Shown one piece after another: positions 220 to 44,191 of a stretch of 64,000 bases of DNA (positions within the stretch are counted from its first letter, which is position 1; each line of letters opens with the position of its first letter). The DNA comes from Escherichia coli (GTDB lineage Bacteria; Pseudomonadota; Gammaproteobacteria; Enterobacterales; Enterobacteriaceae): assembly GCF_016903815.1 (NCBI RefSeq), contig NZ_CP069973.1. The stretch is one strand, 5' to 3'. Under the pieces are notes generated by a model. It did no database searches and was not told the origin of the DNA. It saw nothing but the letters and a program-made list of their open reading frames with translations. Made by a program: the position numbers and the translations under genes.

Positions 220-872
220 TTTTTTTCTCGTCTTTCTGGTTTGATGTCATTGAGCTATAAAGTAGTCAATAAACAATATTGACCGATCGTCTAATAATCA
301 ACGCTGATATCCCAGTGTTTGTCAGAAAACAAGAATTGCTTTTCTTTTCATCAGGTTAAATCTATCTTTTTTGATTTATATCAAACCAGATTCGGTCTTC
401 AATTATATAGGCATCAATGTTAGCGGTCCTACAAGATACGCAGTCGATGCTTCAGGGCGTACTGATGAAATAAAACAAGTAGGCTGAGATTAGTTGGTCT
501 GCTCATCGCTCACAGCGGACCTTCAGCTTCGTTAGCCAAGCGCTGACATAGTTACCGATGTAGCGTGTTAATCTGTCGGGAGCATAGCCGAAATCACTTA
601 ATCCATTAGACTTCACCTAAAACTGCAAAAATTACCGTCTTTGTCACACTCACCGAGTTTAATCAAACTAACACTGTACATAGTGCGAACAAGAGCCAAC
701 CAGAAAGACTGTTCAGCATCAACAGTGAAGTTTTTCCCCGCCACTTCCCCGCAATTCCTCCGCAGTTTTCCCACTAGAGAGTTCGACACATCCCTTGCAT
801 ACCAACGCTTTGATTCAAATCTCGGTAGTGCATCCAATTAGTAGAATATGTGTTTTTCGATAAATGCTCCGA

Positions 873-1232
873 TCACTTTTTCGTGGATCTCAACTGAGCG
901 TGAGAAGCAGATTGTTTACGAGCCAACCGCTTAATGTGGGTGCGTAGCGTCAGATTATTACGCTCAATGCGTTGGGTGAATATTTTGCCGGTCAGATGCT
1001 TATTCTTCGGCACCACCCGGCCATAGCTGTCCCAGTCATCGCTGGTGAGCATGCCGATGTTGAAGGGTGTAAGCAGTGCCAGTAGCTCCCGGCACGTTTG
1101 ATTGGTTCGGGGACCAAAAGTGTAGGCCAGTACACCGCCTGTTTTGGTGTTGTACGCGTACCAGAGCCAGTGTAGCCGGGCTTTACTGCCAACGTAGCTC
1201 CATTGCTCATCAAGCTCGCAGATAAGCGCCAC
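873..1232 (-). CDS. insB: IS1-family InsB-like transposase segment (probably expressed as InsAB' by -1 frameshift, or N-terminally truncated)
   Basis: 119 aa ORF ...CELDEQWSYVGSKARLHWLWYAYNTKTGGVLAYTFGPRT... matches the IS1 InsB catalytic region (compare [25 protein letters not shown]...). Confidence 0.7.
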   Translation of the reverse strand: MALICELDEQWSYVGSKARLHWLWYAYNTKTGGVLAYTFGPRTNQTCRELLALLTPFNIGMLTSDDWDSYGRVVPKNKHLTGKIFTQRIERNNLTLRTHIKRLARKQSASHAQLRSTKK

Positions 1233-1258
1233 ATCAGCATGGGCAACAGGCGAAGAAG

Positions 1259-1531
1259 TTATTTGCGTTGGCGCGAGTTTTTTAAAGTCCGGATGATGGT
1301 GTTAATACCAATTTTCAGTGTCCTGGCGGTATCGCGAACCCCGGCACCATTAAAGGCCATTTCAGTGATCATCTCTTTCATACCCGGCTTACGTGCTTGA
1401 TAAGTATAAGTGAGCTGAAACACACGGTGGCAGTCACGGCAGCGAAATCTGTCACGGCCTTTAGGGTTCTGACCATGGCGGTAAACCTGAGCTGACTGAC
1501 AACGGGGACAATGAATATTAACGCTGGCCAT
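1259..1531 (-). CDS. insA: IS1-family InsA-like protein (zinc-finger/HTH transposition regulator)
   Basis: 90 aa MASVNIHCPRCQSAQVYRHGQNPKGRDRFRCRDCHRVFQLTYTYQARKPG...; CxxC...CxxC pattern and colinearity with canonical IS1 InsA. Confidence 0.8.
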   Translation of the reverse strand: MASVNIHCPRCQSAQVYRHGQNPKGRDRFRCRDCHRVFQLTYTYQARKPGMKEMITEMAFNGAGVRDTARTLKIGINTIIRTLKNSRQRK

Positions 1532-1783
1532 GAGATAACCTCAAAAGCCCGTATTATACATCAGATTCAACCAATTAGAGGCATCACCCTTTCCTACATT
1601 CGTAGGACTTTGATTACATATAGCAAGGGTTAATTCTTATATACATAGAATAAATTAGGAATATAATGAATTTTATCGTGACGACCTTATTTATAATTAA
1701 TTTATATCGTCAGAGAAATTAGTGTCCACAACATGAAGCCTTACAAAGAGATTCTATGATTTAAAAAAAATAAGAGCCAGCTT

Positions 1784-3253
1784 ATGCATATCGATTCGAC
1801 TGAAAAAAATAATAAACAAAAGTTGGGCTTGCTTGCGCTAACATCCATTGTCGTGAGCTCGATGATCGGCAGCGGCGTTGACGGACTCCCCCAGAATATG
1901 GCGGAGAATTCTGCCGTGGGCCCGGTGGCGATAGCATGGATAGTCTGTGGTATCGGCATGTTTTTCATCTCCAGAACTTTTATCGTGCTGTCAAACATTA
2001 GACCTGATCTCCAGTCAGGAGTTTATATGTATGCCCGGGAAGGGTTCGGCCGATTTACGGCATTTAACGTCGCCTGGGGCTACTGGCTGATGACTATATT
2101 CAGCAACGTCGCCTTTGCCATTATGGTGATGGATACGCTGAATTATTTCTTACCAGGTGATTTCAAGGGAGGGAACAATATTCCTTCCGTTATCGGTGCC
2201 TCTTTGCTGATATGGGGATTCAACTTTTTAGTCCTCTCCGGTACCCGCATTGCCGGGTCGATTAACATCGTCGGCACGCTGGCCAAACTGATCCCGCTGG
2301 TGGCCTTTATTATTATTCTCATGCTGTTTATGAAGTACACCACGTTCGCAGATAACGTCTGGGGGCACAGCGCGAGTAAGGCCAGTCAGGACCTAGGCTC
2401 TATTTTCTCACAGGTAACTTCACCGCTTAGCGTGGCACTCTGGAGCTTCATCGGCGTTGAGGGGGCTGTCGCTCTTTCCGGTCGGGCCAAAAATAAACGC
2501 GACGTGGGTAAAGCCACATTCATTGGCTTCGTTGTATCACTGATTATCTGTCTGCTGGTCTCCATCCTGCCGTTTGGCGTGCTGACTCAACATGAGCTCA
2601 GCGCAATTCCAACCCCATCCACCGCCGGTATTCTGAAGATTGTTGTCGGTGAATGGGGGAAGATTATGATTATCTTGGGGGTGCTGATTTCGGTGCTTAC
2701 CAGCTGGCTGGCGTGGACCATCATCTGCGCCGAACTGCCTATGGTGGCCGCGCAGAACGGCACATTCCCGAAACCGTTCAGCAAAAAAAATGTGAAGGGT
2801 TCGGCCTCGGTTTCGCTTTATATAAGCAGTGCGTTTATGCAAATCGTCGTACTTCTGGTCTACTTTTCTAACGATGCCTGGCTTGCAATGCTGGCTATCT
2901 CTACCCTGACCGTTTTACCTGCGTATTTAATGACCACGGCATACCTGTTTAAACTATGTATTAGCGGCGAGTATGCCAGCTATACCACGAATCACAGCCG
3001 CAGCGCCGCGCTGGTCAGCAGTATTATCGGCTTTGTATTCTGCCTGTTTATGTTCTACGCCAGTGAAATCAAATATCTGGCGATGGTTCCGGTGCTGCTT
3101 ACGCTGGGCGTGCCCCTGTTTATCTGGGCAAGAAAAAAAGACGATCGCGCAGATAAAATATTTACGCTACGCGAACTGGCATTTTTTATTTTACTGCTGG
3201 TCCTCGACATCATTGTTTTTATTCTACTGCATTATAAAACGATACATTTTTAG
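1784..3253 (+). CDS. ArcD/YdgI-type basic amino acid/polyamine antiporter (APC superfamily, APA family), copy 1
   Basis: 489 aa; ATG at 1784 with AAGAG RBS; N-terminal KLGLLALTSIVVSSMIGSGV..LPQNMA motif and GVEGAVALSGRAKNKRDVGKAT motif typical of ArcD/YdgI arginine:ornithine-type exchangers; multiple hydrophobic helices. Confidence 0.85.
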   Translation: MHIDSTEKNNKQKLGLLALTSIVVSSMIGSGVDGLPQNMAENSAVGPVAIAWIVCGIGMFFISRTFIVLSNIRPDLQSGVYMYAREGFGRFTAFNVAWGYWLMTIFSNVAFAIMVMDTLNYFLPGDFKGGNNIPSVIGASLLIWGFNFLVLSGTRIAGSINIVGTLAKLIPLVAFIIILMLFMKYTTFADNVWGHSASKASQDLGSIFSQVTSPLSVALWSFIGVEGAVALSGRAKNKRDVGKATFIGFVVSLIICLLVSILPFGVLTQHELSAIPTPSTAGILKIVVGEWGKIMIILGVLISVLTSWLAWTIICAELPMVAAQNGTFPKPFSKKNVKGSASVSLYISSAFMQIVVLLVYFSNDAWLAMLAISTLTVLPAYLMTTAYLFKLCISGEYASYTTNHSRSAALVSSIIGFVFCLFMFYASEIKYLAMVPVLLTLGVPLFIWARKKDDRADKIFTLRELAFFILLLVLDIIVFILLHYKTIHF

Positions 3254-3357
3254 TCCAGATTAATTCACAGCAAGTTAAGGTGACGATAATGTCTGTTTCT
3301 TGGGCATGACATCCTCACAGTTAAATACTATCTGAACAGTAACAGTGGAGACACCTA

Positions 3358-5727
3358 ATGAAATTTAACCACAATCTTTTATTTATTTCCTCACAATATC
3401 TTGATGGCGACAACCCTTCGCAGCAGGTACTGGAAGAGCTTCAAACCGAACTCGCGGAACGCGGTTTTAAAATTCATATCACGCACCAGATCTCTGATGG
3501 ATTAAAAATCATCGAAAAAAGCCCCCAATACAGCGGGATTGGTTTTTACTGGGAGCCAGACAATCCGACCTTTGCAGAAGAGCTACAGCACTTTATCAGC
3601 ATATTCCGCAAAAGAAATGCCACGACGCCGCTGATAATTTTCTCAGAACAGAATATTACCGATCGTATCCCACTCGACGTCTTAAAAGAGGTCAGCGAAT
3701 ATGTTTATCTGTTCTCTGAATCCGCAGCCTTCACTGCCAATCGACTGTACTCCTTAGTCCACCGCTATGCGGATAAGCTTCTTCCTCCCTACTTTAAAAC
3801 CCTTAAGGACTTTACCGAGGACGGTGACTATTACTGGGACTGCCCGGGGCATATGGGGGGAATGGCCTATCTGAAACATCCTGTTGGCATTGAGTTCATT
3901 AACTTCTTTGGCGAAAACATGATGCGCGCTGATATTGGCGTGGCTACCGCGGAGATGGGGGATTATCTGATCCACGCCGGACCGCCTAAAAAATCGGAAG
4001 AAATTGCGGCCCGACTGTTTGGCTCTGATTGGACCTTCTACGGTGTTTCCGGCTCATCGGGGTCGAACCGTATTGTGGCCCAGGCTGCGGTTGGCGCAGA
4101 TGAAATTGCCATTATTGACCGAAATTGCCACAAGTCACTTAATCATGGCCTGACCTTGTCTCAGGCAAGGCCGGTTTACCTGAAACCTACCCGCAACGCG
4201 TGGGGGCTGATTGGGCCTATCCCGACCGGACGCCTGAAGAAGGCCAGTATTGATGCGCTGGTGGCAAACAGCCGACTGGCATCTGGTGCGGTCAGCCAGT
4301 CCCCGTCCTACGCCGTGGTAACCAACTGCACCTATGATGGCTTCTGTTATAACGTGAACGATGTAGTCAGACACCTGGGTGAAAGCGCACCGCGCATCCA
4401 TTTTGATGAAGCATGGTATGCCTATGCGCGTTTCCATCCGCTATACCAGAGTCGCTATGCAATGGACGCGGAGGAAACGCCAAATCGTCCAACCCTATTC
4501 GCCGTACAGTCCACCCATAAAATGCTGCCCTCACTCTCCATGGCCTCAATGATTCATGTGAAGAAAAGCGATCGCGCGCCGCTTAATTTCGATGACTTTA
4601 ACGATGCCTTTATGATGCACGGCACGACCTCACCCTACTACCCGATCATTGCATCAATTGATGTGGCAGTAAGCATGATGGAGGGTGAATCCGGTTATTC
4701 GCTTGTGCAGGAGTCAATTGAAGAAGCGATTGCCTTCCGTAAAGCCGTGGTCAGCGTCAAGCGCCAGCTCCAGGAGCAGGAAGGTGGTGACGCCTGGTTC
4801 TTCGATGTGCTTCAGCCAACCGAAGTGCAGGACAGCGATTCTGGGCAGCGATACAGTTTTGAAGAGGCACCCGTATCGCTGCTGAGCCACAGCGCCGACT
4901 GCTGGTCGCTGCGCTCCGGTGAGCGCTGGCACGGTTTTGCCGATGATGATCTGGTCGAAACCAACAGTATGCTCGATCCAGTAAAAGTGACCCTGACTTG
5001 TCCAGGGATCGGCCCGAAGGGAGAATACCAGAAAAACGGTATTCCGGGATATTTGCTGACCCGTTTTCTCGATGACCGTCGCATTGAAATTGCCCGTACT
5101 GGTGACTACACCGTGCTGATCCTGTTCTCCGTCGGCATCACCAAAGGCAAATGGGGAACTCTGATTGAAAGCCTGCTGGCCTTTAAAAAGCATTACGACA
5201 ATGACGATCTGGCCACAGATGCTATCCCGTCGCTGAAAGCGCATTCTCCACACTACGACACGCTAACCCTCAAGGAGCTATGTCAGATAATGCATGAAAA
5301 AATGGATGAGCTGGAGCTGATGTCGCATATCAACGACGCGGTAAACACCGATCCGGAACCAGTTATGACCCCGGCAGAAGCCTATCAGAAAGTCGTACGC
5401 TACAAAACCGAGCATATCCGGCTGGATGATTTTAGCGGCAGAATTGCCGCCAGCATGCTCGTCCCATATCCCCCAGGCATTCCTGTACTGATGCCGGGCG
5501 AACGGATGCCGCAAGGTAACAAGGGCATTATTGGCTATCTGCGCGCCCTGCAGGAATTCGATAAGCAATTCCCAGGTTTTGAACATGAGATCCAGGGCGT
5601 TAACGTCGATGAAGACGGGGACTTCTGGGTCAGAGCGATTGTGGAAGAAGAACGCGATGGGCAGTCGCTACCCGGCCACATAACCTTTAAACGCCAGGTC
5701 TCTGGTATTAAAAAGGGCCGCCAGTAG
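3358..5727 (+). CDS. PLP-dependent Orn/Lys/Arg decarboxylase, AdiA/CadA/SpeF family (fold-I, with N-terminal wing domain); substrate not assignable from sequence
   Basis: 789 aa; GGAGA RBS before ATG 3358; conserved blocks shared with E. coli AdiA (YWDCPGHMGG, SGSSGSNRIV, DRNCHKSLNHGL, VVTNCTYDGFCYN, HFDEAWYAYARF, STHKML with the PLP-binding Lys, ASIDVAVSMMEG, MLDPVKVTL, KGKWGTL, PYPPGIPVLMPGE, FPGFEHE). Longer than AdiA (755 aa) with a distinct C-terminal tail. Confidence 0.9.
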   Translation: MKFNHNLLFISSQYLDGDNPSQQVLEELQTELAERGFKIHITHQISDGLKIIEKSPQYSGIGFYWEPDNPTFAEELQHFISIFRKRNATTPLIIFSEQNITDRIPLDVLKEVSEYVYLFSESAAFTANRLYSLVHRYADKLLPPYFKTLKDFTEDGDYYWDCPGHMGGMAYLKHPVGIEFINFFGENMMRADIGVATAEMGDYLIHAGPPKKSEEIAARLFGSDWTFYGVSGSSGSNRIVAQAAVGADEIAIIDRNCHKSLNHGLTLSQARPVYLKPTRNAWGLIGPIPTGRLKKASIDALVANSRLASGAVSQSPSYAVVTNCTYDGFCYNVNDVVRHLGESAPRIHFDEAWYAYARFHPLYQSRYAMDAEETPNRPTLFAVQSTHKMLPSLSMASMIHVKKSDRAPLNFDDFNDAFMMHGTTSPYYPIIASIDVAVSMMEGESGYSLVQESIEEAIAFRKAVVSVKRQLQEQEGGDAWFFDVLQPTEVQDSDSGQRYSFEEAPVSLLSHSADCWSLRSGERWHGFADDDLVETNSMLDPVKVTLTCPGIGPKGEYQKNGIPGYLLTRFLDDRRIEIARTGDYTVLILFSVGITKGKWGTLIESLLAFKKHYDNDDLATDAIPSLKAHSPHYDTLTLKELCQIMHEKMDELELMSHINDAVNTDPEPVMTPAEAYQKVVRYKTEHIRLDDFSGRIAASMLVPYPPGIPVLMPGERMPQGNKGIIGYLRALQEFDKQFPGFEHEIQGVNVDEDGDFWVRAIVEEERDGQSLPGHITFKRQVSGIKKGRQ

Positions 5728-5745
5728 GCGGGGGAAAGAACAATA

Positions 5746-5771
5746 CCGTCGGATCGCCTGCAATCCGACGG
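5746..5771 (+). promoter_or_regulatory. Intercistronic stem-loop between the decarboxylase and the downstream antiporter (possible attenuator or mRNA processing/stability element)
   Basis: Inverted repeat CCGTCGGAT-cgcctgca-ATCCGACGG (9-bp stem) in the 74-bp spacer; no strong T-run follows. Confidence 0.4.
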
Positions 5772-5801
5772 CAATATTATAGAATAGCTGAGGGAAACGT
5801 T

Positions 5802-7301
5802 ATGGCAGAGCAATCTTCAGATGTAAAAAATAGTGACAATAGCGCCGGAGGACATAAGCTGGGGCTTATATCCCTCATCGCTATTGTCGTTAGCTCCATG
5901 CTGGGAGGCGGCGTTTTCAGTCTGCCGCAAAACACGGCGGCCTCTTCTGCACTAGGGCCAGTAATCATTGCATGGATTATTGCCGGGATCGGTATTTATT
6001 TTATCGCAAACTCCTTTCGCGTACTATCAGATCTGCGCCCGGACCTTCAGGCTGGAGTGTATATGTATGCCCAGGAAGGTTTTGGTTCCTTTATTGGCTT
6101 TAACGTCGCCTGGGGCTACTGGCTGATGACCGCATTTGGCAACGTTGCCTTTGCGGTAATTTTAATGGATGCTTTTAATCAGTTTATGCCGGGGGTTTTT
6201 ACGGATGGTAATAATCTGAACTCCATTATCTGCGGCTCAGTGCTGATCTGGGGCTATAATTTTCTTGTTCTGTCCGGGACGAAAGTGGCCGGATTTGTTA
6301 ACACCTTGGGAACCATCGCCAAGCTCGTCCCTCTGATCCTATTCGTATTACTGCTGGGTGTGCTGATCGATTATTCGGACCTGTTTAAAAACTTTTGGGG
6401 AGAATCACCCGCGATCCTCAGTGGCAACGGAAATGACGCCGCACCAGTATCGCTGCTGTCTCAGATTCTGGCACCGATGACCGTAACGCTCTGGGCCTTT
6501 ATTGGCGTCGAGGGAGCGGTTGTTCTATCCGGACGTGCCAAAAATAAACAGGACGTAGGGAAAGCCACACTGATCGGCTTTCTGCTGGCGCTAATTATTT
6601 ATATGTTAATGTCCATTCTGCCGTTCGGTGTAATGCCTCAGGCAGAACTAGCGCAGGTCAGTAACCCCTCTACCGCAGGCGTGCTCGCCCACGTTGTCGG
6701 TCAGTGGGGCGACTGGCTGATGAGCGCGGGGCTGATTATTTCTGTTCTGGCCGGCTGGCTTGCCTGGACCATGCTATGCGCTGAAATACCGATGGTAGCA
6801 GGACAGAAAGGCGCTTTCCCGCGCGCGTTTGCCCGAACGAACAGTAAACAGGCGGCCAATGTGTCACTGTGGGTTAGTAGCTTTGTGATGCAGGCGGCCA
6901 TGTTACTTGTTTATTTTTCAAATAATGCTTGGACCACCATGTATAATATCAGTGCGCTGATGGTTGTTCCGGCCTATATTACCACCACGCTGTATCTGAC
7001 CAGTATTTGCAGAAACGGAAAATATGATCAGTATGCAAAAAAAGGCCGCAGGCTGGCTTTGTCCAGCGGTGTTTTAGGCTCGCTATTCTGTCTGTTTATT
7101 CTTTACGCCAGCCAGATTGAGTATGTTGCATTAATTCCTATCCTGTTGACCTGTGGTCTGCCGGTCTTTATCTGGTCAAGAAAAGAAAAAAATGATGGTC
7201 AGCCGATATTTACCAAAAAAGAGCTGATTTATCTGATTATGCTGTTGCTGTGCGATATTATCGTCGTTGCCCTGTTTATTGGTGGATATTTAAAGGTATA
7301 A
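5802..7301 (+). CDS. ArcD/YdgI-type basic amino acid/polyamine antiporter (APA family), copy 2 (paralog of 1784..3253)
   Basis: 499 aa; GAGGGA RBS; same motifs as copy 1 (KLGLISLIAIVVSSMLGGGVFSLPQNTA, GVYMYAQEGFG, FNVAWGYWLMT, GVEGAVVLSGRAKNKQDVGKAT) with long collinear identity. Confidence 0.85.
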   Translation: MAEQSSDVKNSDNSAGGHKLGLISLIAIVVSSMLGGGVFSLPQNTAASSALGPVIIAWIIAGIGIYFIANSFRVLSDLRPDLQAGVYMYAQEGFGSFIGFNVAWGYWLMTAFGNVAFAVILMDAFNQFMPGVFTDGNNLNSIICGSVLIWGYNFLVLSGTKVAGFVNTLGTIAKLVPLILFVLLLGVLIDYSDLFKNFWGESPAILSGNGNDAAPVSLLSQILAPMTVTLWAFIGVEGAVVLSGRAKNKQDVGKATLIGFLLALIIYMLMSILPFGVMPQAELAQVSNPSTAGVLAHVVGQWGDWLMSAGLIISVLAGWLAWTMLCAEIPMVAGQKGAFPRAFARTNSKQAANVSLWVSSFVMQAAMLLVYFSNNAWTTMYNISALMVVPAYITTTLYLTSICRNGKYDQYAKKGRRLALSSGVLGSLFCLFILYASQIEYVALIPILLTCGLPVFIWSRKEKNDGQPIFTKKELIYLIMLLLCDIIVVALFIGGYLKV

Positions 7302-7443
7302 GTCCGAGTTAAATCTTTACTGGGCTAGTAATGCCGCCTTTTAAACAAGAAGGGCGGCAATCTTACTGAAATTAGTATGCTGCAAATCGGTAATGCTGCC
7401 AACTTACTGATTTAGTGTATGATGGTGATTTTAAGGTGCTTGC

Positions 7444-7719
7444 GTGGCTTCCATTTCCATCAGATGTCCTTCCTGCTCCGCTACTGAAGGCGTGGTGCGT
7501 AACGGCAAAAGCACTGCCGGACATCAGCGCTATCTCTGCTCTCACTGCCGTAAAACATGGCAACTGCAGTTCACTTACACCGCTTCTCAACCCGGTACGC
7601 ACCAGAAAATCATTGATATGGCCATGAATGGCGTTGGATGCCGGGCAACTGCCCGCATTATGGGCGTTGGCCTCAACACGATTTTACGTCACTTAAAAAA
7701 CTCAGGCCGCAGTCGGTAA
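7444..7719 (+). CDS. insA: IS1 InsA
   Basis: 91 aa [91 protein letters not shown]. Confidence 0.95.
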
Positions 7720-8141
7720 CCTCGCGCATACAGCCGGGCAGTGACGTCATCGTCTGCGCGGAAATGGGCGAACAGTGGGGCTATGTCGGGGCTAAATCGC
7801 GCCAGCGCTGGCTGTTTTACGCGTATGACAGGCTCCGGAAGACGGTTGTTGCGCACGTATTCGGTGAACGCACGATGGCGACGCTGGGGCGTCTTATGAG
7901 CCTGCTGTCACCCTTTGACGTGGTGATATGGATGACGGATGGCTGGCCGCTGTATGAATCCCGCCTGAAGGGAAAGCTGCACGTAATCAGCAAGCGATAT
8001 ACGCAGCGAATTGAGCGGCATAACCTGAATCTGAGGCAGCACCTGGCACGGCTGGGACGGAAGTCGCTGTCGTTCTCAAAATCGGTGGAGCTGCATGACA
8101 AAGTCATCGGGCATTATCTGAACATAAAACACTATCAATAA
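7638..8141 (+). CDS. insB: IS1 InsB (expressed as InsAB' fusion by frameshift)
   Basis: 167 aa ORF ...[40 protein letters not shown]...[10 protein letters not shown], canonical IS1 InsB. Confidence 0.95.
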
Positions 8142-8156
8142 GTTGGAGTCATTATC

Positions 8157-8949
8157 TAACCGTAGCGTTTATTACGCGCAGGTGACGCGTCCTGTTAATG
8201 TGCAAAGAATTGACTTACGAAGTCGGGTGAGGGCTTTCCATGCTCTCAGTCGTGGCGCAGCCGGTAGCCGTGCAATCAGTCAGATGTTGCGCCAGAGTAG
8301 CGTTGATGCAGGCCGGTGGCTGGCACGACGACTGATGCGGGAATGCGGGCTGACAAGTCGACAGATGGTTAAACATCACTACCGGGTCAACGAAGACAAA
8401 AGTCCGCCATTGCCAAATTTACTGAACCGGCAATTTCACCCCGCCGCACCAGACCGCGTCTGGTGCGGCGACATCAGTTTTATTCGCCTGCATGACAAAT
8501 GGTGTTAGCTCGCGCTCGTTGTTGATTTATATTCACGGCGGATTACCGGTTCAGCCCTCTCATTAACCGCTGATGCTGAGTTGGTGTGTAGGGCTTTGCG
8601 TAATGCACTGGAAACACGATCACGTGATGGCCGTCTGCTGTTTCATTCAGATCAAGGTGTTCAGTATAAAAGCAATAAATACAGAAAGTTACTCTGGCGT
8701 TATGGGGTAATGCAAAGTATGAGTTGCAGAGGGAATGGCCTGGATAATTCGCCGATGGAAAGAGTCTTTCGCAGCCTTAAAAATGAATGGCTTCCGAAAG
8801 GTGGTTATGGTGATTTTATCCATGCGGTACGTGATATAAACCAGTGGATTAATGGTTATTACAACGTTTATCGACCTCACACGAACAACGATGGTTTACC
8901 GCCTTGCTTACATGAAGAAAAGTGGAAACAGGTTATTCCGGTGTCCTGA
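8157..8949 (+). pseudogene. IS3-family transposase OrfB remnant: 5' part (OrfA and start of OrfB) removed by the IS1 insertion, plus an in-frame TAG at 8506-8508
   Basis: Single reading frame translates ...[49 protein letters not shown]...[11 protein letters not shown]...[13 protein letters not shown]...[15 protein letters not shown], collinear with IS3/IS2-type OrfB; the amber codon sits where family members have Tyr (WLYLAVV). 3' end of the element not precisely located (probably within ~40 bp after 8949). Confidence 0.8.
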
Positions 8950-9166
8950 TTTTGTGAACCACTACAATAATCCTTTTTCACAGACTTGTCAGCAGCCAGC
9001 ATTTATGTTCTTTTACCTGCGGGAATTTATCCGTCTGCCTGTCGGGACTACTCTGTCATACAGAAATCAGGTAGGAATAAATTGTAGTGGAAAGTCGATG
9101 TTTACCGGATGACTGATGCGCGCTTGTACACAGACAGTGTGTTTCAGTAATATGGAGAATAATGAA

Positions 9167-9667
9167 ATGAATAACACAGACACATTAGAAAAAATAATCA
9201 GACACCAAAAAAACAAAGACCCCGCATATCCCTTTCGGGAACATTTGTTGATGCAGCTCTGTATTCGCACAAATAAAAGAATGCAGGATAATATATCTGA
9301 ATTTCTGGGGGCGTATGGAATAAATCACTCAGCATATATGGTTCTCACCACATTATTCGCAGCGGAGAACCATTGTCTGTCACCTTCAGAGATAAGCCAG
9401 AAACTTCAGTTTACCAGAACTAATATTACCCGCATTACAGATTTTTTAGAAAAAGCCGGATATGTAAAAAGGACGGATAGCAGGGAGGATCGCCGTGCTA
9501 AAAAAATCAGTCTGACATCTGAAGGTATGTTTTTTATTCAGAGGCTCACTCTTGCACAAAGCATGTATCTGAAAGAAATCTGGGATTATCTGACTCATGA
9601 TGAACAGGAACTGTTTGAAGTCATTAATAAAAAATTACTGGCACATTTTTCTGATGCCAGCTCATAA
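9167..9667 (+). CDS. MarR-family transcriptional regulator, EmrR/MprA-like (possibly a PapX/SfaX-type 17-kDa regulator)
   Basis: ORF 9116..9667; likely start ATG 9167 after GGAGA. Sequence ...YPFREHLLMQLCIRTNKRM...GINHSAYMVLTTLFAAENHCLSPSEISQKLQFTRTNITRITDFLEKAGYVKRTDSREDRRAKKISLTSEG... aligns with EmrR (winged-helix region [28 protein letters not shown]). Surrounded by AT-rich DNA. Confidence 0.8.
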   Translation: MNNTDTLEKIIRHQKNKDPAYPFREHLLMQLCIRTNKRMQDNISEFLGAYGINHSAYMVLTTLFAAENHCLSPSEISQKLQFTRTNITRITDFLEKAGYVKRTDSREDRRAKKISLTSEGMFFIQRLTLAQSMYLKEIWDYLTHDEQELFEVINKKLLAHFSDASS

Positions 9668-10133
9668 AGTGCGAAATATCTGAGGATGCTGGATAGCTTC
9701 AGGCAAGAGAATAATGATTCTTGCAGATGTGTTTTTCCGGATACAAAAACAAAAGTAAAAAATTGCAGCGCCAGGCCACCTTTCAAAGCAGGGAGGCTTG
9801 TACCGCGTCGAAAATTTCAGCCAGTTAATGTAATTGTCTGAACCAGGCACTTCGCCCGGGCAGGAGAAGGAGCGTGGTTGCGGTCATCCTGTATACTGAA
9901 GTCGTTATGAAGGAATAATACAAATAATTGCCCGTTTTCTCTGTACGATAGAGGCAGGTGTGTATGATTGCATCACTATGTTTTTGTGATATAAAAAACT
10001 AAATGGTGAGATATGCATTTTAAAATATAACAAAAATCACCATGAAATAAGAATAATTATCCACGGAGAACATAAACTGCAGACTGTTACAATGCATGCT
10101 GTTCATCTTGACAATGTCGGTAATGACTCCAAC

Positions 10134-10637
10134 TTATTGATAGTGTTTTATGTTCAGATAATGCCCGATGACTTTGTCATGCAGCTCCACCGATTTTGAG
10201 AACGACAGCGACTTCCGTCCCAGCCGTGCCAGGTGCTGCCTCAGATTCAGGTTATGCCGCTCAATTCGCTGCGTATATCGCTTGCTGATTACGTGCAGCT
10301 TTCCCTTCAGGCGGGATTCATACAGCGGCCAGCCATCCGTCATCCATATCACCACGTCAAAGGGTGACAGCAGGCTCATAAGACGCCCCAGCGTCGCCAT
10401 CGTGCGTTCACCGAATACGTGCGCAACAACCGTCTTCCGGAGCCTGTCATACGCGTAAAACAGCCAGCGCTGGCGCGATTTAGCCCCGACATAGCCCCAC
10501 TGTTCGCCCATTTCCGCGCAGACGATGACGTCACTGCCCGGCTGTATGCGCGAGGTTACCGACTGCGGCCTGAGTTTTTTAAGTGACGTAAAATCGTGTT
10601 GAGGCCAACGCCCATAATGCGGGCAGTTGCCCGGCAT
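10134..10637 (-). CDS. insB: IS1 InsB
   Basis: 167 aa, identical in translation to the InsB at 7638..8141. Confidence 0.95.
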
Positions 10638-10831
10638 CCAACGCCATTCATGGCCATATCAATGATTTTCTGGTGCGTACCGGGTTGAGAAGCGGTGTAA
10701 GTGAACTGCAGTTGCCATGTTTTACGGCAGTGAGAGCAGAGATAGCGCTGATGTCCGGCAGTGCTTTTGCCGTTACGCACCACGCCTTCAGTAGCTGAAC
10801 AGGAGGGACAGCTGATAGAAACAGAAGCCAC
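10556..10831 (-). CDS. insA: IS1 InsA
   Basis: 91 aa [37 protein letters not shown]..., canonical InsA. Confidence 0.95.
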
Positions 10832-11360
10832 TGGAGCACCTCAAAAACACCATCATACACTAAATCAGTAAGTTGGCAGCATCACCCAATCTGCTGACAG
10901 ACGAAGATAATGAACCCGTTATGGTTTTTAACGGAGAGAGGAATGTACTGGCAGACAGTCTGAAACCACAGCCTCTGATTCTTCCGGTCAAGGGAAAATA
11001 AGCGTAATGTTCATCACCAGATTATGTACGATGAGTTTTCCACTGTTTATAGCAATTATCTTGCTAATAACCAGACAGGAGTAACCAGACCAACCGAAAA
11101 CACCGGGAAGGTGATTACCCGCTGGCAGAGGAAATCCGGTTTTTTTTGATGTCAGCCATAACGTGTTTGACAATAAAGCATCATGAAAGGGTGTTAATGA
11201 GTCCATGGGATAATTCATAAAAATAATTTACTGTGTTATCCTTTTCAAAAGAAATATTCAGAAGATAACCCCTGGCTGACAACCAGGGGAAGGGGGCATT
11301 AACAGTGTTATTATTGGTGAATAAATTATTACTTGTGTGCAGGATACACTAATGCAATAT

Positions 11361-12434
11361 CTACTGATACTGTATGCCAGTATGTTTCATGCCTGCCGCT
11401 GAAAACGGCAATATCCAGGGCCAGACATATTCACCATTCATATTTCTGCATTTCTGTACAATTTTCTCAGAAAGCGTCTCATCAATTCTTTCACGCAACT
11501 TCTCCTGCTGTCTTAAAATACTTTCGCATATTTCGAAATCATCTTCCTGCATCAGCATTTCGGCGCATTTAATGATTTCTGCCCGTTCATGCAGCACAGA
11601 GGAATGATTATAGAGCCAGTTTACAAACAGCAATGCTTCCGGATATTGCCCCCATAACGGGTGGTATGTGGCATAATAATCTTCGGCAGTATCCGGACCG
11701 CCTGAAAAGTTATGCCATACAGCAAGTGGAAATGGATGCAGATTTCCGCACAGTATTTCTGCGATGTAAGTATTTGCCGCAAAGCCGCGACGAAATGCAG
11801 TTGCAGCTTTTACCAGTTCCCCATTAAGAAAATGCAGAAGGCCGAGTTCATACCAGTAAGGTGAAAATTCATCTGCATGTTCCTGCAGTATATGGCGTGC
11901 CTGTTCATGAGCGCCAGTGCGTAACAGTTCCGGTCCCAGTAGCCAGCGTGCACCATGATTATCTTCGGGATTGTAATCCAGTATTTTTTCAATGAGCATG
12001 ATGGCATCCTGATGACGCCGTAAATGTGCATTTGCCAGGATTGCCGCATAGAGGGCACGAAGAAAAGGTCGGTTGTCAGGATGTATCCAGATGATTCTGC
12101 CACTGAAACCTTCAGGGATAAGACGATTGCCAACTGCCAGCCCTTTAAGGGCAGCATTCAGCGCCTTACGCGGGGCATTCTGCTCCAGAAATACGTATGC
12201 CAAGTGAGCGTGTACATCAATAAAGTCATTCTCCTGTCGGGCAAGGCGCCTGAGTTTGTTGATGTAACTTGTTTCGCTGATTTCATCCGCATCGTATGCA
12301 TCAATCAGTTCTTCAAACTCATCCAGCAACGAGCCAAACCAGGTTTCCGGAAATATGAAACAGCCCTGGTTATCGTTCACTTCAAAGCGTAATTTGCCAG
12401 TCATATTCTGAACCTGTAAAAAAGGATGGACCAT
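11361..12434 (-). CDS. Hypothetical protein (island cargo next to integrase); helical-repeat (TPR-like) character, function unknown
   Basis: 357-aa ORF (possible internal start at MTGKL...); no family recognised from memory; lies immediately downstream of the integrase region inside the pheU island. Confidence 0.55.
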   Translation of the reverse strand: MVHPFLQVQNMTGKLRFEVNDNQGCFIFPETWFGSLLDEFEELIDAYDADEISETSYINKLRRLARQENDFIDVHAHLAYVFLEQNAPRKALNAALKGLAVGNRLIPEGFSGRIIWIHPDNRPFLRALYAAILANAHLRRHQDAIMLIEKILDYNPEDNHGARWLLGPELLRTGAHEQARHILQEHADEFSPYWYELGLLHFLNGELVKAATAFRRGFAANTYIAEILCGNLHPFPLAVWHNFSGGPDTAEDYYATYHPLWGQYPEALLFVNWLYNHSSVLHERAEIIKCAEMLMQEDDFEICESILRQQEKLRERIDETLSEKIVQKCRNMNGEYVWPWILPFSAAGMKHTGIQYQ

Positions 12435-12616
12435 AACCTGCAGGCTATAAAAATTGTGATGCCTGGCATCGGTGTCCTTTTATTGTCCGGGATTAACGTT
12501 GCCCATGATAATACAGTGAATTCTGTTCTGTGGTAAGACGTTGAGTTATTGAATGAGAACCTCAGCCTGGCTGATGGTTCCGCCGGCATAAAAAAGAAAT
12601 TGATTGAGGCGGGTGC

Positions 12617-12640
12617 TCTTCCCCTTAAGAGGAAGAGCAT
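12617..12640 (-). terminator. Near-perfect 12-bp inverted repeat just downstream of the integrase stop (possible terminator or protein-binding palindrome)
   Basis: GCTCTTCCCCTT/AAGAGGAAGAGC palindrome with one mismatch; T-run on minus strand is somewhat distal. Confidence 0.35.
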
Positions 12641-12659
12641 GTGTGTAAATGGCGTTCAG

Positions 12660-13925
12660 TCACCTTTTCAGTGGATTGTTAACTTTTGCATATTCAAACG
12701 GACTGATACACTCCTCCCTGTTTGCATCCAGAAAATCTGCCCACCATTGCAGCATAAGCCGACGTTCTTCCAGATGTTCTGCTTTATGAATATACGCGGC
12801 ACGTACTCCGTTGCGCTCCTGATGACTCATCTGACGTTCAACCGCATCTCTTGACCATAAGCCGGATTCAATCAATGCACTGCACGCCATCGCCCGGAAT
12901 CCATGGCCACAGACTTCCTTGGTTGTGTCATACCCCATCACCCTCAGGGCTTTATTTACAGTATTTTCACTGATTGGTTTACGCGGGTCATGTGCACCCG
13001 TAAATATCAGACCATTTTCACCTGCCCATGTCTGAAGTTCTGTCAGTATGGCTACAGCCTGTTTACTGAGTGGCACAAGATGTGGTGTCCGCATCTTGGA
13101 GCCCCGGTGTGAGAATTTTACGCCAGGCAGAGGTTCGCGTTCGGCTGGAATAGTCCACATGGCATTGTCAATATCAATTTCAGACCAGCGGGCATATCTG
13201 AGTTCACTGGAACGAATAAAAACCAGTAAATTCAGCATAACGGCAAGCCGGGTGACAGGCTGGCCTTTATAACCGTCAATACGCGACAGAAGTTCAGGCA
13301 GGCGTGAAAGATTCAGAGCGGGGCGATGCTGGCGTTTTACCGTGGTCAATGCACCAGCCATATCCAGAGCCGGGTTATATCTGATGATGCCAGACTGTAC
13401 GGCGTAACGCATTACAGCAGATATTCTTTGCTGCAGACGACTAGCGATTTCATAAATTTGTTTTGCTTCTGCAGCACGAACAGGGATAAGCAGGTCCGGG
13501 GTATTGAGTGTTGTGATATCCCGGTTGCCGATAAAGGGGAAAACGTGTGTCTCGAGGCTTTTGAGTACTTTATCGCTGTGTGATTGTGCCCATTGTTTAT
13601 TACTGGCATGCCAGCGTCGTGCAATATGTTCAAAAGAGAGCTGTAAATCAGGGACTACTTTTTTAACTCTTTTCTGTTCGCAAGGGTCAATCCCCTCTGA
13701 AATCAGTTTTCGGGCCTCATCCCGTTTTGTACGAGCTTCGGAGAGAGAAACTTCTGGATACACACCAAGTGCCAGAGTCTTCTCCTTACCCAGAATACGA
13801 TAACGGAGACGCCAGTAACGGGAACCATTAGGATGAACCAGCAGGAACATGCCGGCCCCGTCAGTGAGTTTATAAGCCTTGTCAGTGGGCTTTGCAGCCC
13901 GGATTTTTGCGTCAGTCAGTGCCAT
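12660..13925 (-). CDS. P4-type (phage/island) tyrosine integrase, tRNA-associated
   Basis: 421 aa MALTDAKIRAAKPTDKAYKLTDGAGMFLLVHPNGSRYWRLRYR..GKEKTLALGVYPEVSLSEARTKRDEARKLI...; C-terminal region with HGFRAMACSALIESG...R and catalytic-type motifs; adjacent to the 3' end of tRNA-Phe. Confidence 0.93.
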   Translation of the reverse strand: MALTDAKIRAAKPTDKAYKLTDGAGMFLLVHPNGSRYWRLRYRILGKEKTLALGVYPEVSLSEARTKRDEARKLISEGIDPCEQKRVKKVVPDLQLSFEHIARRWHASNKQWAQSHSDKVLKSLETHVFPFIGNRDITTLNTPDLLIPVRAAEAKQIYEIASRLQQRISAVMRYAVQSGIIRYNPALDMAGALTTVKRQHRPALNLSRLPELLSRIDGYKGQPVTRLAVMLNLLVFIRSSELRYARWSEIDIDNAMWTIPAEREPLPGVKFSHRGSKMRTPHLVPLSKQAVAILTELQTWAGENGLIFTGAHDPRKPISENTVNKALRVMGYDTTKEVCGHGFRAMACSALIESGLWSRDAVERQMSHQERNGVRAAYIHKAEHLEERRLMLQWWADFLDANREECISPFEYAKVNNPLKR

Positions 13926-14085
13926 AGTTCAGCCTTCTGAATGCGTTAAAGAGGGTATAAATTCTGTCGAACTGGGGTATGCCCACAATTATACCCACAC
14001 AATGAGGTTGATGTGGGGGGAATCTGGTTGAGTTCGGTAGAATTGATTTGGAGGCAGGACGCTTAAATCGTGGCGTCCTGGAATG

Positions 14086-14110
14086 AAAAACGGACCTCCG
14101 TGGAGGTCCG
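14086..14110 (-). terminator. Rho-independent terminator of pheU
   Basis: Palindrome CGGACCTCCG-TGGAGGTCCG followed (on minus strand) by a T-run, immediately 3' of the tRNA. Confidence 0.7.
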
Positions 14111-14122
14111 TTGATATGAATT

Positions 14123-14198
14123 TGGTGCCCGGACTCGGAATCGAACCAAGGACACGGGGATTTTCAATCCCCTGCTCTACCGACTGAGCTATCCGGGC
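14123..14198 (-). tRNA. pheU: tRNA-Phe(GAA)
   Basis: Reverse complement reads GCCCGGATAGCTCAGTCGGTAGAGCAGGGGATTGAAAATCCCCGTGTCCTTGGTTCGATTCCGAGTCCGGGCACCA (76 nt, CCA end, GAA anticodon). Confidence 0.97.
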
Positions 14199-26956: not shown

Positions 26957-27523
26957 ATGGCAACGTACTATAGCAACGATTTTCGTGCTGGTCTTAAAAT
27001 CATGTTAGACGGCGAACCTTACGCGGTTGAAGCGAGTGAATTCGTAAAACCGGGTAAAGGCCAGGCATTTGCTCGCGTTAAACTGCGTCGTCTGCTGACC
27101 GGTACTCGCGTAGAAAAAACCTTCAAATCTACTGATTCCGCTGAAGGTGCTGATGTTGTCGATATGAACCTGACTTACCTGTACAACGACGGTGAGTTCT
27201 GGCACTTCATGAACAACGAAACTTTCGAGCAGCTGTCTGCTGATGCAAAAGCAATTGGCGACAACGCCAAATGGTTGCTGGATCAGGCAGAGTGTATCGT
27301 AACTCTGTGGAATGGTCAGCCGATCTCCGTTACTCCGCCGAACTTCGTTGAACTGGAAATCGTGGATACCGATCCGGGCCTGAAAGGTGATACCGCAGGT
27401 ACTGGCGGCAAACCGGCTACCCTGTCTACTGGCGCTGTGGTTAAAGTTCCGCTGTTTGTACAAATCGGCGAAGTCATCAAAGTGGATACCCGCTCTGGTG
27501 AATACGTCTCTCGCGTGAAGTAA
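26957..27523 (+). CDS. efp: Elongation factor P
   Basis: 188 aa [49 protein letters not shown]... Confidence 0.97.
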
Positions 27524-27574
27524 TGCGGTTGTGGTGCGGCCTGCAGGCTGCACCATCACTTATTCAGGTCAGAG

Positions 27575-27700
27575 ATGATGAAACGCCTTATCGTTCTTGT
27601 TTTGCTTGCCAGTGCGCTGCTCACGGGCTGTAACACCGCTCGCGGTTTTGGTGAAGACATTAAACATCTCGGTAATTCCATCTCCCGCGCTGCCAGCTAA
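27575..27700 (+). CDS. ecnA: Entericidin A lipoprotein (antidote)
   Basis: 41 aa MMKRLIVLVLLASALLTGCNTARGFGEDIKHLGNSISRAAS; lipobox LTGC. Not in the ORF track because it is short. Confidence 0.85.
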   Translation: MMKRLIVLVLLASALLTGCNTARGFGEDIKHLGNSISRAAS

Positions 27701-27810
27701 TTTTTCTTCTCTTCCGAAAAATCATCAGATTTCCATCATTTTTGGTGATGTTGTCTATTATTAATTTGCTATAGGCAAACATAAATAACATTACCTAAAA
27801 GGAAGACGTT

Positions 27811-27957
27811 ATGGTGAAGAAGACAATTGCAGCGATCTTTTCTGTTCTGGTGCTTTCAACAGTATTAACTGCCTGCAACACCACGCGTGGCGTTGGTGAA
27901 GACATTTCTGATGGCGGTAACGCGATTTCTGGCGCAGCAACGAAAGCGCAGCAGTAA
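27811..27957 (+). CDS. ecnB: Entericidin B lipoprotein (bacteriolytic toxin)
   Basis: 48 aa [48 protein letters not shown]; paralog of ecnA. Confidence 0.85.
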
Positions 27958-27994
27958 GCAATAACGGTACGACAGTTATGTCGTGCCGTTTGTT

Positions 27995-28700
27995 GTGCAC
28001 AGAAAACCCCCAGCTAGGCTGGGGGTTCCGGAAAGCTTTCAGCTTTGAGCCAGTTATTAAAACCCCTTTTGATTTGTTAAAACACCTTGCGGTCTGGCAA
28101 CTGCAAGTGTCAAACAAGAAATCAAAAGGGGGTCCCAATGGGGAACGAAAAGAGCTTAGCGCACACCCGATGGAACTGTAAATATCACATAGTTTTTGCG
28201 CCAAAATACCGAAGACAGGTGTTCTACAGAGAGAAGCGTAGAGCAATAGGCAGTATTTTGAGAAAGCTGTGTGAGTGGAAAAGCGTACGGATTCTGGAAG
28301 CTGAATGCTGTGCAGATCATATCCATATGCTTGTGGAGATCCCGCCCAAAATGAGCGTATCCGGGTTTATGGGATATCTGAAAGGGAAAAGCAGTCTGAT
28401 GCTTTACGAGCAGTTTGGTGATTTGAAATTCAAATACAGGAACAGGGAGTTCTGGTGCAGAGGGTACTACGTCGATACAGTGGGTAAGAACACGGCGAAG
28501 ATACAGGATTACATAAAGCACCAGCTTGAAGAGGATAAAATGGGAGAGCAGTTATCGATTCCCTATCCGGGCAGCCCGTTTACGGGCCGTAAGTAACGAA
28601 GTTGGATGCAAATGTCAGATCGTGTGCGCCTGTTAGGGCGCGGCTGGTAAGAGAGCCTTATAGGCGCATTTGAAAAACCTCCGGCTATGCCGGAGGATAT
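27995..28700 (+). mobile_element. IS200/IS605-family (IS200-like) insertion sequence; boundaries approximate (+/- ~15 bp)
   Basis: Single Y1-transposase gene flanked by subterminal hairpins: CCCCCAGC-tag-GCTGGGGG (28007-28025) and CCTCCGG-ctatg-CCGGAGG (28678-28696); ~700 bp overall, as expected for IS200. Confidence 0.8.
28138..28596 (+). CDS. tnpA: IS200-family transposase TnpA (Y1 HUH transposase)
   Basis: 152 aa MGNEKSLAHTRWNCKYHIVFAPKYRRQVFYREKRRAIGSILRKLCEWKSVRILEAECCADHIHMLVEIPPKMSVSGFMGYLKGKSSLMLYEQF...; HxH (HIHML) motif and catalytic Tyr region. Confidence 0.92.
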   Translation: MGNEKSLAHTRWNCKYHIVFAPKYRRQVFYREKRRAIGSILRKLCEWKSVRILEAECCADHIHMLVEIPPKMSVSGFMGYLKGKSSLMLYEQFGDLKFKYRNREFWCRGYYVDTVGKNTAKIQDYIKHQLEEDKMGEQLSIPYPGSPFTGRK

Positions 28701-28781
28701 TTATTTTTTTGCGATAGTCACAAAGGTAATAGTTGAAATTCCCCTGCCACCTGGCAAAATATCCGTTCAACCATCAGCTTT

Positions 28782-28824
28782 GCAGGACGACCTGCAAACG
28801 CCTCTTTTCACCGGGGACGGCCCC
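28782..28824 (+). promoter_or_regulatory. Guanidine-II (mini-ykkC) riboswitch in the gdx 5' leader
   Basis: Two short hairpins with ACGR tetraloops: GCAGG-ACGA-CCTGC (28782-28795) and GGGG-ACGG-CCCC (28813-28824), directly upstream of the gdx start codon. Confidence 0.85.
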
Positions 28825-28842
28825 AATTCTCCGGAGCCTGAT

Positions 28843-29160
28843 ATGTCCTGGATTATCTTAGTTATTGCTGGTCTGCTGGAAGTGGTATGGGCCGTTGGCC
28901 TGAAATATACCCACGGCTTTAGTCGTTTGACGCCAAGTGTTATTACCGTGACGGCGATGATTGTCAGTATGGCGCTACTTGCCTGGGCGATGAAATCGTT
29001 ACCAGTAGGGACGGCTTATGCCGTGTGGACGGGTATTGGCGCAGTCGGCGCGGCCATCACCGGCATTGTGCTGCTCGGCGAGTCCGCTAACCCGATGCGC
29101 CTGGCGAGTCTGGCGTTAATCGTATTGGGGATTATTGGTCTGAAACTCAGCACTCACTAA
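28843..29160 (+). CDS. gdx: Guanidinium exporter Gdx (SugE), SMR family
   Basis: 105 aa [105 protein letters not shown]. Confidence 0.95.
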
Positions 29161-29690
29161 CTACCGGGCTGCTGTACCCAAATAAACTTACTGACATCAA
29201 ACCCTTCCTGGGTCGCGACTGCCAGCATCTCCTGTTTCACTTCGTCAGAAATGGTTGGTGTGCGGGAGAGTATCCACAGGTAGTCGCGGTCCGGGCCGCA
29301 AACCAGCGCATGGCGGTATTCCCGATCGAGTGCAATAACGTTATAACCGCCATAGAAAGGACCAAAGAATGACACTTTCAGCGCAGCGCGAGTTGGTGCG
29401 CCGGTAAAGTACGCTTTCCCTTCACTCTGCTGCCACATTTCTCTGTCAGGGTTATAGCCTTTATTAATGACATTCAGGCCGCCGTCATCCCGCAGGCTGT
29501 ATGTTGCGGTGACTTTTTCCAGTCCACGTTCAAAGCGGTGATCAAAACGGGCAATCTCATACCAGGTACCGAGATAGCGTTTAGCATCGAAATTATTCAC
29601 TACGGTCACGCCACGGGGCGGCGTAGGAGAACTGCAGGCAACGACCAGAAATGCAGCTGTCGCTGCGGCAACGAGAGGGAGCAGGCGCAT
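29157..29690 (-). CDS. blc: Outer membrane lipocalin Blc
   Basis: 177 aa [57 protein letters not shown]...; convergent with gdx, stop codons overlapping. Confidence 0.95.
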
Positions 29691-43771: not shown

Positions 43772-43847
<76 letters not shown>

Positions 43848-44004
43848 AAATTTGAAAAGTGCTGCAAAGCACAGACCACCCAATCGCAGTATTTCGAATT
43901 GCGACAAGGCGGCAACTGAACGAATCCTTGGGAGCTTACAAAAGTAAGTGACTAAGGTGAGTGAAGGCAGCCAAGGCAGTAGCGGTTCGAAAGACGAAGA
44001 TTAA

Positions 44005-44080
<76 letters not shown>

Positions 44081-44115
44081 AAATTTGAAAGTGCTGTAAA
44101 GCACAGACCACCCAA

Positions 44116-44191
<76 letters not shown>

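Follow-up and report, generated by a model that had tools for sequence, protein, structure and literature searches.

The locus considered here, in which a small insertion sequence separates the entericidin gene ecnB from the guanidinium exporter gene gdx (in the order epmB, efp, ecnA, ecnB, IS200C, gdx (sugE), blc, ampC, frdDCB), raises the question of how the element came to lie there and whether it changes the expression of the genes on either side. The window, that is, the whole stretch of Escherichia coli DNA that was analysed, comprises 64,000 nucleotides, and an earlier note on it had proposed that the insertion could displace the native gdx promoter, provide read-through transcription, or alter guanidine-responsive control and ecnAB expression. 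Based on the results described below, the element is a complete IS200C that very probably arrived in a single insertion by 'peel and paste' into the T-run of the ecnB terminator, and that is very probably near-neutral for gdx (Table 1). Since this is a mobile element defined by its sequence, chance plays no part in the observation.

Table 1. Sequence features of the region between ecnA and gdx, in window coordinates.
Feature	Position	Strand	Description and evidence
ecnA (flanking gene)	27575-27700
ecnB (entericidin B lipoprotein toxin), CDS	27811-27957	+	NCBIfam NF007487, 121.9 bits (cutoff 94)
ecnB intrinsic terminator, insertion target	27965-27994	+	10-bp hairpin at 27965-27988 with loop GTTA, then TTTGTT at 27989-27994
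IS200C insertion sequence	27995-28705	+	711 bp, complete, no target-site duplication; ends from the divergence of 8 other copies
Left-end subterminal hairpin, AACCCCCAGC-TAG-GCTGGGGGTT	28005-28027	+	10 bp, by folding; 10 nt from left end
Predicted art200 antisense sRNA	28058-28148	-	By homology: TSS at IS nt 153/154, ~90 nt long; coordinates carried over from the Salmonella/E. coli mapping in PMC4513863
SD-sequestering stem-loop	28063-28131	+	RNA fold z = -6.9; equivalent to IS200 nt 69-138 (PMC4513863)
tnpA, Y1 HUH transposase, 152 aa	28138-28596	+	H61-I-H63; Y110
Internal imperfect palindrome of the right end	28624-28669	+	RNA fold centroid
Right-end subterminal hairpin, CCTCCGGC-TAT-GCCGGAGG	28678-28696	+	8 bp, by folding; 9 nt from right end
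9-nt tail ATATTTATT, reaching the right cleavage site	up to 28705	+	3' of the right-end hairpin
Leftover T-run of the ecnB terminator (TTTTT), moved to the right of the IS	28706-28710	+
Native gdx (sugE) sigma-70 promoter, TTGAAA-16-(TG)CAAAAT	28733-28760	+	Promoter scan, Shimada 2014 and K-12 alignment
Guanidine-II (mini-ykkC) riboswitch	28779-28825	+	Rfam RF01068, 50.4 bits (gathering score 32)
gdx/sugE guanidinium exporter, CDS	28843-29160	+	NCBIfam NF008512, 193.5 bits (cutoff 126)

RefSeq loci annotated as 'IS200/IS605-like element IS200C family transposase' were 100% identical to the window locus, among them one encoding WP_000526135.1, an accession also annotated on plasmid copies. The only long open reading frame within the element to match a transposase family was tnpA, with no tnpB present, and the length agreed with the ~0.7 kb of the group. 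The encoded protein scored 147.7 bits against NCBIfam NF033573 ('IS200/IS605 family transposase', cutoff 55), and its whole core could be aligned to the solved structures 2ec2, 2f5g, 2a6o and 2vju (IS608), and 2xm3 (ISDra2), with E values between 4e-23 and 1e-14. Both the HUH motif and the tyrosine were conserved with respect to the solved TnpA structures, the latter (RGY110Y) aligning with the tyrosine of the RSYF stretch in PDB 2ec2 and 2f4f. At the nucleotide level, the Rfam family STnc490 (RF01405; IS200 5'UTR and art200 region) was matched over its full length (1-124) at 28005-28128, with 146.4 bits for a gathering score of 56, and the stem-loop sequestering the Shine-Dalgarno sequence (SD) falls within this match. 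The published anatomy of IS200 (left-end hairpin, SD-sequestering stem-loop and right-end hairpin) was reproduced by folding; the first of these corresponds to nt ~12-34 of Salmonella IS200 (PMC4513863) and is presumed to be the binding site of TnpA. The right-end hairpin resembles the left-end one with paired changes (AAAACC[C/T]CC[A/G]GCTA[G/T]GC[T/C]GG[G/A]GG), and the ends themselves, GTGCACAG... and ...ATATTTATT, show no inverted repeats, subterminal hairpins being found at both. Hence, the tested features of the IS200 group were all found (Y1 HUH TnpA, tnpA only, subterminal hairpins, no target-site duplication, and strand orientation): the element is the named isoform IS200C and belongs to the IS200 group in every tested feature. 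No structural difference was detected with respect to IS200 / IS200C from Salmonella enterica, which shares the length (~707-711 bp), the single 152-aa Y1 transposase gene, the left-end terminator hairpin (nt ~11-33), the SD-sequestering stem-loop (nt 69-138), the right-end hairpin, the full-length STnc490/art200 match, and the lack of inverted repeats and target duplication; only the location in the ecnB terminator is particular to a minority lineage.

The ends were set from junctions extracted by anchors, both from plasmid copies and from empty sites, since no second IS200 copy was found in the 64-kb window and the ends were therefore not definable internally. Eight plasmid copies of IS200C (loci L005-L012 of our comparison) matched the window from GTGCACAG... 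to ...GGAGGATATTTATT, and their flanks, entirely unlike those of the window, part from it exactly before GTGCACAG and after ATATTTATT; the right end carries an uncertainty of 1-2 nt, as TT is present on either side. The hairpin upstream of the left end was considered as part of the element and rejected, given that its sequence differs at every copy. A hairpin scan of the ecnB terminator gave a stem of 10, a loop of 4 and a tail of 6, in agreement with folding, and IS200C was found to be inserted within the T-run of this terminator, 6 nt 3' of the hairpin and 3' of TTGTT. When the left flank (…GCCGTTTGTT) and the right flank (TTTTTGCG…) are rejoined, the empty site of strain 50579417 (L004) is recovered base for base, indicating that no target duplication was generated and no host bases were lost. 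The empty site reads GCCGTTTGTTTTTTTGCG in this strain and one T more in a second locus (L003), these being the IS-free relatives closest to the window, and GCCGTTTGTTTTTTCTGCG in K-12, the TTTGTTTTTTT run being uninterrupted in all three. The absence of duplication or loss is what would be expected from 'peel and paste' transposition, by which the element would have inserted once, as a single strand, 3' of TTGTT. Among IS-free strains, the length of the T-run varies (TTTGTTTTTTC in K-12, TTTG+7T in L004 and TTTG+8T in L003), and the loop region of the hairpin reads CAGCTGTG in K-12 and CAGTTATG in the window lineage.

Most of what the earlier note had said about the element itself is borne out by these results. 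Its description of a complete IS200-family element with a 152-aa Y1 transposase and a hairpin near each end agrees with NF033573, STnc490 and folding; its orientation (IS and gdx on the + strand), its place after the ecnB terminator hairpin, more precisely inside the T-run, and its absence from K-12, where the site is uninterrupted, were all confirmed. The alignment to IS-free sequence that it had suggested for the exact ends and any duplication yielded the 711 bp and the rejoined flanks described above, so that of the span proposed there (27995-28700) the left end holds and the right end moves to 28705, within the TT ambiguity.

As for the choice of site, one genome per species was scanned for the left-end hairpin core and matches with an IS200-type leader were kept, resulting in 97 unique left flanks from E. 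coli plasmids, Yersinia pestis (IS1541), Vibrio ruber, Mailhella, Desulfovibrio, Oxalobacter, Sutterella, Brenneria, Edwardsiella, and Bacillota/Peptococcaceae MAGs; many of these flanks share genomes, left flanks only were used because MAG contigs often break inside the IS, and all copies analysed are survivors. All nine IS200C copies (the one in the window and the eight on plasmids) were preceded by a GC-rich hairpin plus TT-N-TT, and 82 of the 97 flanks end in TTNTT, a figure in which the last base was constrained to T by the filter (one hairpin pattern, with an IS200-type leader preceded by T), which biases the last-base statistic and not the hairpin statistic. Under a strict rule for terminator-like sequence, 79/97 left flanks qualified, with respect to 119/2466 (4.8%) of the TTNTT sites followed by G in the same loci and 37/3479 random positions. 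The folding energy (MFE) of the 45 nt upstream pointed in the same direction, with medians of -18.8 kcal/mol in the flanks and -6.0 kcal/mol in the control (Mann-Whitney p = 1e-49). The insertion point was located 5-10 nt past the G:C foot of the hairpin in 91/97 flanks and 6-9 nt past it in 79/97 (mode 6-7 nt), and at the element's own right end the cut lies 9 nt past the foot of the hairpin. Directly 5' of both end hairpins a conserved GAAAA was found. In IS608, base pairing takes place between the cleavage or target sequence and a short 'guide' located 5' of the hairpin, and by analogy GAAAA would fit a pairing of this guide/cleavage-site type with a T-rich target. In Y. pestis NCTC5923 (L118, L119 and L121), IS1541 copies are arranged head-to-tail in tandem, the second starting directly after ...CCGGAGGATATTTATT of the first, which indicates that the right end of a resident copy is itself targeted for insertion.

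Taken with some reserve, these patterns suggest that IS200-type elements choose their sites by structure, an intrinsic terminator in single-stranded form being cut 6-9 nt past the hairpin foot in mimicry of the element's own right end; we regard this proposal as tentative, and as somewhat less than an even prospect. A preference for hairpin plus T-run would explain the position at the ecnB terminator, where the site would reflect a short T-rich target (TTNTT) directly after a stable hairpin, resembling the right end of the element with its hairpin and ATATTTATT. The group showing such structural targeting may comprise IS200, IS200C, IS1541, and relatives in Vibrio, Desulfovibrionaceae, Oxalobacter and Bacillota, and the ecnB-gdx copy may be, if this reading is true, one textbook instance of structure-guided site choice.

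The association with terminators could also result from selection after insertion instead of target choice, copies located elsewhere having been lost and terminator-shielded ones having persisted. In a recent preprint (10.1101/2025.07.22.666184), terminator-like sequences were found to be enriched upstream of insertion sequences, most strongly for IS200/IS605, and this enrichment was taken to reflect a setting that keeps transposase expression low and helps the elements persist; the data presented here, all of them from fixed, surviving copies, would accommodate such a process. Selection does not readily account, however, for insertions inside the T-run at so narrow a distance (6-9 nt in 79/97) rather than scattered through the downstream intergenic DNA, for the ~17-fold under-use of T-run sites without a hairpin, or for the tandem copies of Y. 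pestis, placed exactly after the right-end hairpin and ATATTTATT of another copy, and the GAAAA 5' of the end hairpins would fit pairing of the IS608 guide type with a T-rich target. On balance, selection in place of target choice appears unlikely. The terminator association is not wholly new in either case, one genome paper also calling the IS200C sites a 'T-rich region'; no explicit statement of a fixed hairpin-to-site spacing or of right-end mimicry was found in the literature searched, outside which lay the older IS200/IS1541 papers and the family review. Within that literature, no data on where the element inserts were found in Ellis 2015.

The 17-nt hairpin core CCCCAGCTAGGCTGGGG was also present in other repeated contexts, with the leaders …GTTAAAGAAATAC and …AATAAGCATC (Ruminococcus / Eubacteriales MAGs). 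These loci (L033 and L098-L106; L018, L096-L097 and L102-L103) were left out of the target statistics; no match to an IS200-like TnpA was found within 800 nt of them, and they may represent different elements or non-autonomous derivatives.

Regarding orientation, members of the IS200/IS605 family, as established for IS608 and ISDra2, prefer to have their top strand on the lagging-strand template. The GC skew of the + strand was positive over the whole window, from which the top strand of the IS would be the lagging-strand template; in K-12 the locus maps to 4.376 Mb, a position that, from the location of oriC, we take to be within the right replichore. Such an orientation agrees with the lagging-strand template, as a single case that proves nothing.

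Among known relatives, IS1541 from Yersinia pestis / pseudotuberculosis is close to the present element (TnpA ~94% identical, same left-end hairpin core), and the same hairpin and T-run target context was observed in 16 of its loci (L117-L132); it differs in its 5' leader (GTGCCCAG, compared to GTGCACAG here), in its host, and in the tandem arrays of Y. pestis, with none here. An IS1541 copy has been reported between pheL and pheA in Yersinia, i.e. after an attenuator (PMC3082878). With IS608 (Helicobacter pylori) and ISDra2 the element shares the Y1 HUH fold (PDB 2a6o, 2vju and 2xm3; E values from 1e-16 to 1e-19), subterminal hairpins, integration 3' of a short specific sequence with no duplication, and a top strand on the lagging-strand template. 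Unlike the IS200 type, however, these two also carry tnpB and have TTAC and TTGAT as targets, while the target of the IS200 type is T-rich and adjoins a hairpin. To our knowledge, a hairpin beside the target is not needed by IS608 or ISDra2. A similar niche is occupied by group IIC (bacterial class C) introns, which prefer a terminator stem-loop followed by a T-run and thereby limit harm to the host, yet rely on retroelement/ribozyme chemistry and unrelated proteins, so that the analogy is one of niche only. The insertion of group IIC introns after intrinsic terminators was reportedly described by Robart, Seo and Zimmerly in 2007.

Whether the IS materially rewires the expression of its neighbours, through read-through into gdx, loss of promoter determinants or a destabilised or extended ecnB mRNA, was evaluated on both sides of the insertion; were this the case, carriers would differ in guanidine/QAC export or in entericidin-mediated lysis. 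On the gdx side, which is co-oriented with the IS, the alignment showed the window to be identical to K-12 from ~28710 up to the first gdx codons, riboswitch and SD included. The promoter TTGAAA-16-CAAAAT, the only sigma-70-like site within 27500-29200 in the promoter scan, begins 27 nt past the right end of the IS, and its core as well as the 27 nt upstream of the -35 are those of K-12. Shimada et al. 2014 (Table 3; PMC3946193) list the same hexamers for an RpoD-holoenzyme peak located in the ecnB>sugE spacer, where they were obtained by in vitro binding of RNAP holoenzyme and consensus searching rather than by mapping of a 5' end. The riboswitch, located 73 nt from the IS right end, consists of two hairpins with ACGR-type loops (ACGA and ACGG) ahead of the gdx SD, and by sequence belongs to the guanidine-II class, defined by two ACGR hairpins before the SD of an SMR/Gdx gene. 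Given that promoter and riboswitch are identical to K-12 and lie downstream of the IS, the insertion has neither displaced the promoter nor changed the riboswitch. Beyond ~-62 with respect to the gdx promoter, the native upstream DNA has been replaced by the IS, and an upstream activator or UP-like contribution could have been lost with it.

Transcription arriving from the IS would be limited as well. Read on the + strand, the right end resembles a terminator, with its hairpin, ATATTTATT, and then the leftover TTTTT, and the left-end hairpin is known in Salmonella IS200 as a bidirectional terminator stopping ~85% of the impinging transcripts, a figure that belongs to that element and not to the present copy (PMC5435999). 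Terminator-like hairpins at both ends thus make read-through into gdx unlikely. An outward or hybrid promoter at the IS right end was also considered, and this reading was dropped as none was detected by the promoter scan. In Salmonella IS200 the tnpA promoter is intrinsically weak, and tnpA is repressed by the 5'UTR structure and by art200 (PMC4513863, PMC5435999). In the present copy, tnpA would be near-silent for the same reasons (weak promoter, sequestered SD and art200 antisense RNA), and its transcripts would end at the right-end hairpin and the leftover T-run. Little read-through into gdx is predicted, and the effect on this gene is likely small.

On the side of ecnB, a gene annotated in RefSeq relatives, the insertion truncates the U-tract of the terminator from UUUGUUUUUUU to UUUGUU followed by GUGCACAG, leaving 5 U in 6 nt where there had been 10 U in 11 nt. 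With this shortening, termination may become less efficient and part of the 3' ends may move to the IS hairpin lying 10 nt downstream, so that the left-end terminator of the IS would act as a back-up for the ecnB hairpin and its reduced U-tract. The truncated U-tract, the replaced DNA upstream of ~-62 and the co-orientation of IS and gdx are what speaks for a rewired locus; set against the K-12-identical promoter, riboswitch and SD, the terminator-like hairpins at either end, the weak tnpA promoter and the lack of an outward promoter-like site, they leave this reading quite improbable. A near-neutral insertion is favoured instead, downstream of which gdx would retain its own promoter, riboswitch and coding sequence unchanged, with the gene and its guanidine control hardly affected and at most a mild change at the ecnB 3' end.

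Consequently, the regulatory proposals of the earlier note fared less well than its description of the element. The gdx promoter that it supposed displaced lies 3' of the IS and is intact at the sequence level, an outcome that the note itself had named as counting against its proposal; altered guanidine-responsive control finds no basis in a riboswitch that is identical to K-12 and downstream of the insertion, and read-through into gdx runs against the terminator-like right end and the documented terminator at the left. The element does lie upstream of the two ACGR hairpins, at 73 nt instead of the ~80 bp given, and of the suggested change in ecnAB expression, a modest effect at the ecnB 3' end could still follow from the shortened U-tract.

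In order to place the insertion within the species, 5426 complete E. coli genomes were searched for both junctions. The left junction was found in 71 and the right junction in 69, compared to 5350 with the contiguous empty site; the top carriers were 100% identical across the whole region, and one origin of the insertion is assumed from the identical junctions. The carriers WCHEC96200 and WCHEC4533 belong to ST405, phylogroup D (PMC5762679, PMC9037040), and the site is empty in the ST38 strain 266917_2. Since the gdx promoter and the guanidine riboswitch are untouched, the insertion is an ordinary, RefSeq-annotated strain polymorphism of a minority E. coli lineage including ST405 strains. A full IS200C-like copy was present somewhere in 1949/5426 genomes (~36%), and carrier chromosomes held 17-30 matching places each, almost all of them IS200C copies. 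Up to 35 IS200C-like matching places were counted per genome and 1291 on plasmids in the same dataset, several of the plasmid copies being in phage-plasmid settings, next to genes for an antiholin, a head processing protein or a KilAC antirepressor (L005, L007 and L010). Such abundance is hard to reconcile with the dormant reputation of the element. That this copy is an inert, immobile relic is highly improbable: IS200 has been described as mostly dormant, with a strongly repressed transposase (PMC4513863), but here the ORF with its HUH motif and tyrosine is intact, as are the two ends and the regulatory RNA structures, many plasmids carry copies that are 99-100% identical to this one, and the 17-30 places per carrier chromosome point to recent spread. 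As judged from these intact features, the present copy is probably transposition-competent.

Elsewhere in the window, positions 1-14198 correspond to an apparent genomic island abutting a tRNA-Phe gene (14123-14198, - strand), at what we take to be the pheU position. The island carries an integrase-domain ORF (12660-13925, - strand), two IS1 transposase ORFs in opposite orientation (7638-8141, + strand; 10134-10637, - strand) flanking an MprA/MarR-like regulator (9116-9667), and two basic amino acid/polyamine antiporters (1784-3253 and 5802-7301) around a 789-aa Orn/Lys/Arg-type decarboxylase (3358-5727), the latter below all equivalog cutoffs; its GC content is 0.48-0.49, compared to 0.50-0.54 further along the window. 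At 43772-44191, the + strand carries a tandem array of three identical tRNA-Gly(GCC) genes, presumably the glyVXY arrangement of K-12.

By itself, the insertion matters little, being a catalogued IS at a lineage-specific site, already annotated by NCBI in ~70 complete genomes. The IS200C-ecnB junction could serve as a PCR marker of the carrier lineage, including ST405, and the locus offers a natural test case for whether ecnB, a toxin gene, is expressed differently when the U-tract of its terminator is split. Only the target-site pattern merits follow-up, and it could matter more than the finding itself. If structural targeting is true, each insertion would split a host terminator and bring terminator-like hairpins at both of its ends, with a near-neutral outcome. 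Targeting of a hairpin and T-run at a fixed spacing would, if confirmed, explain why IS200 elements are benign and persistent, and would add a structure-dependent rule to target recognition in the IS200/IS605 family.
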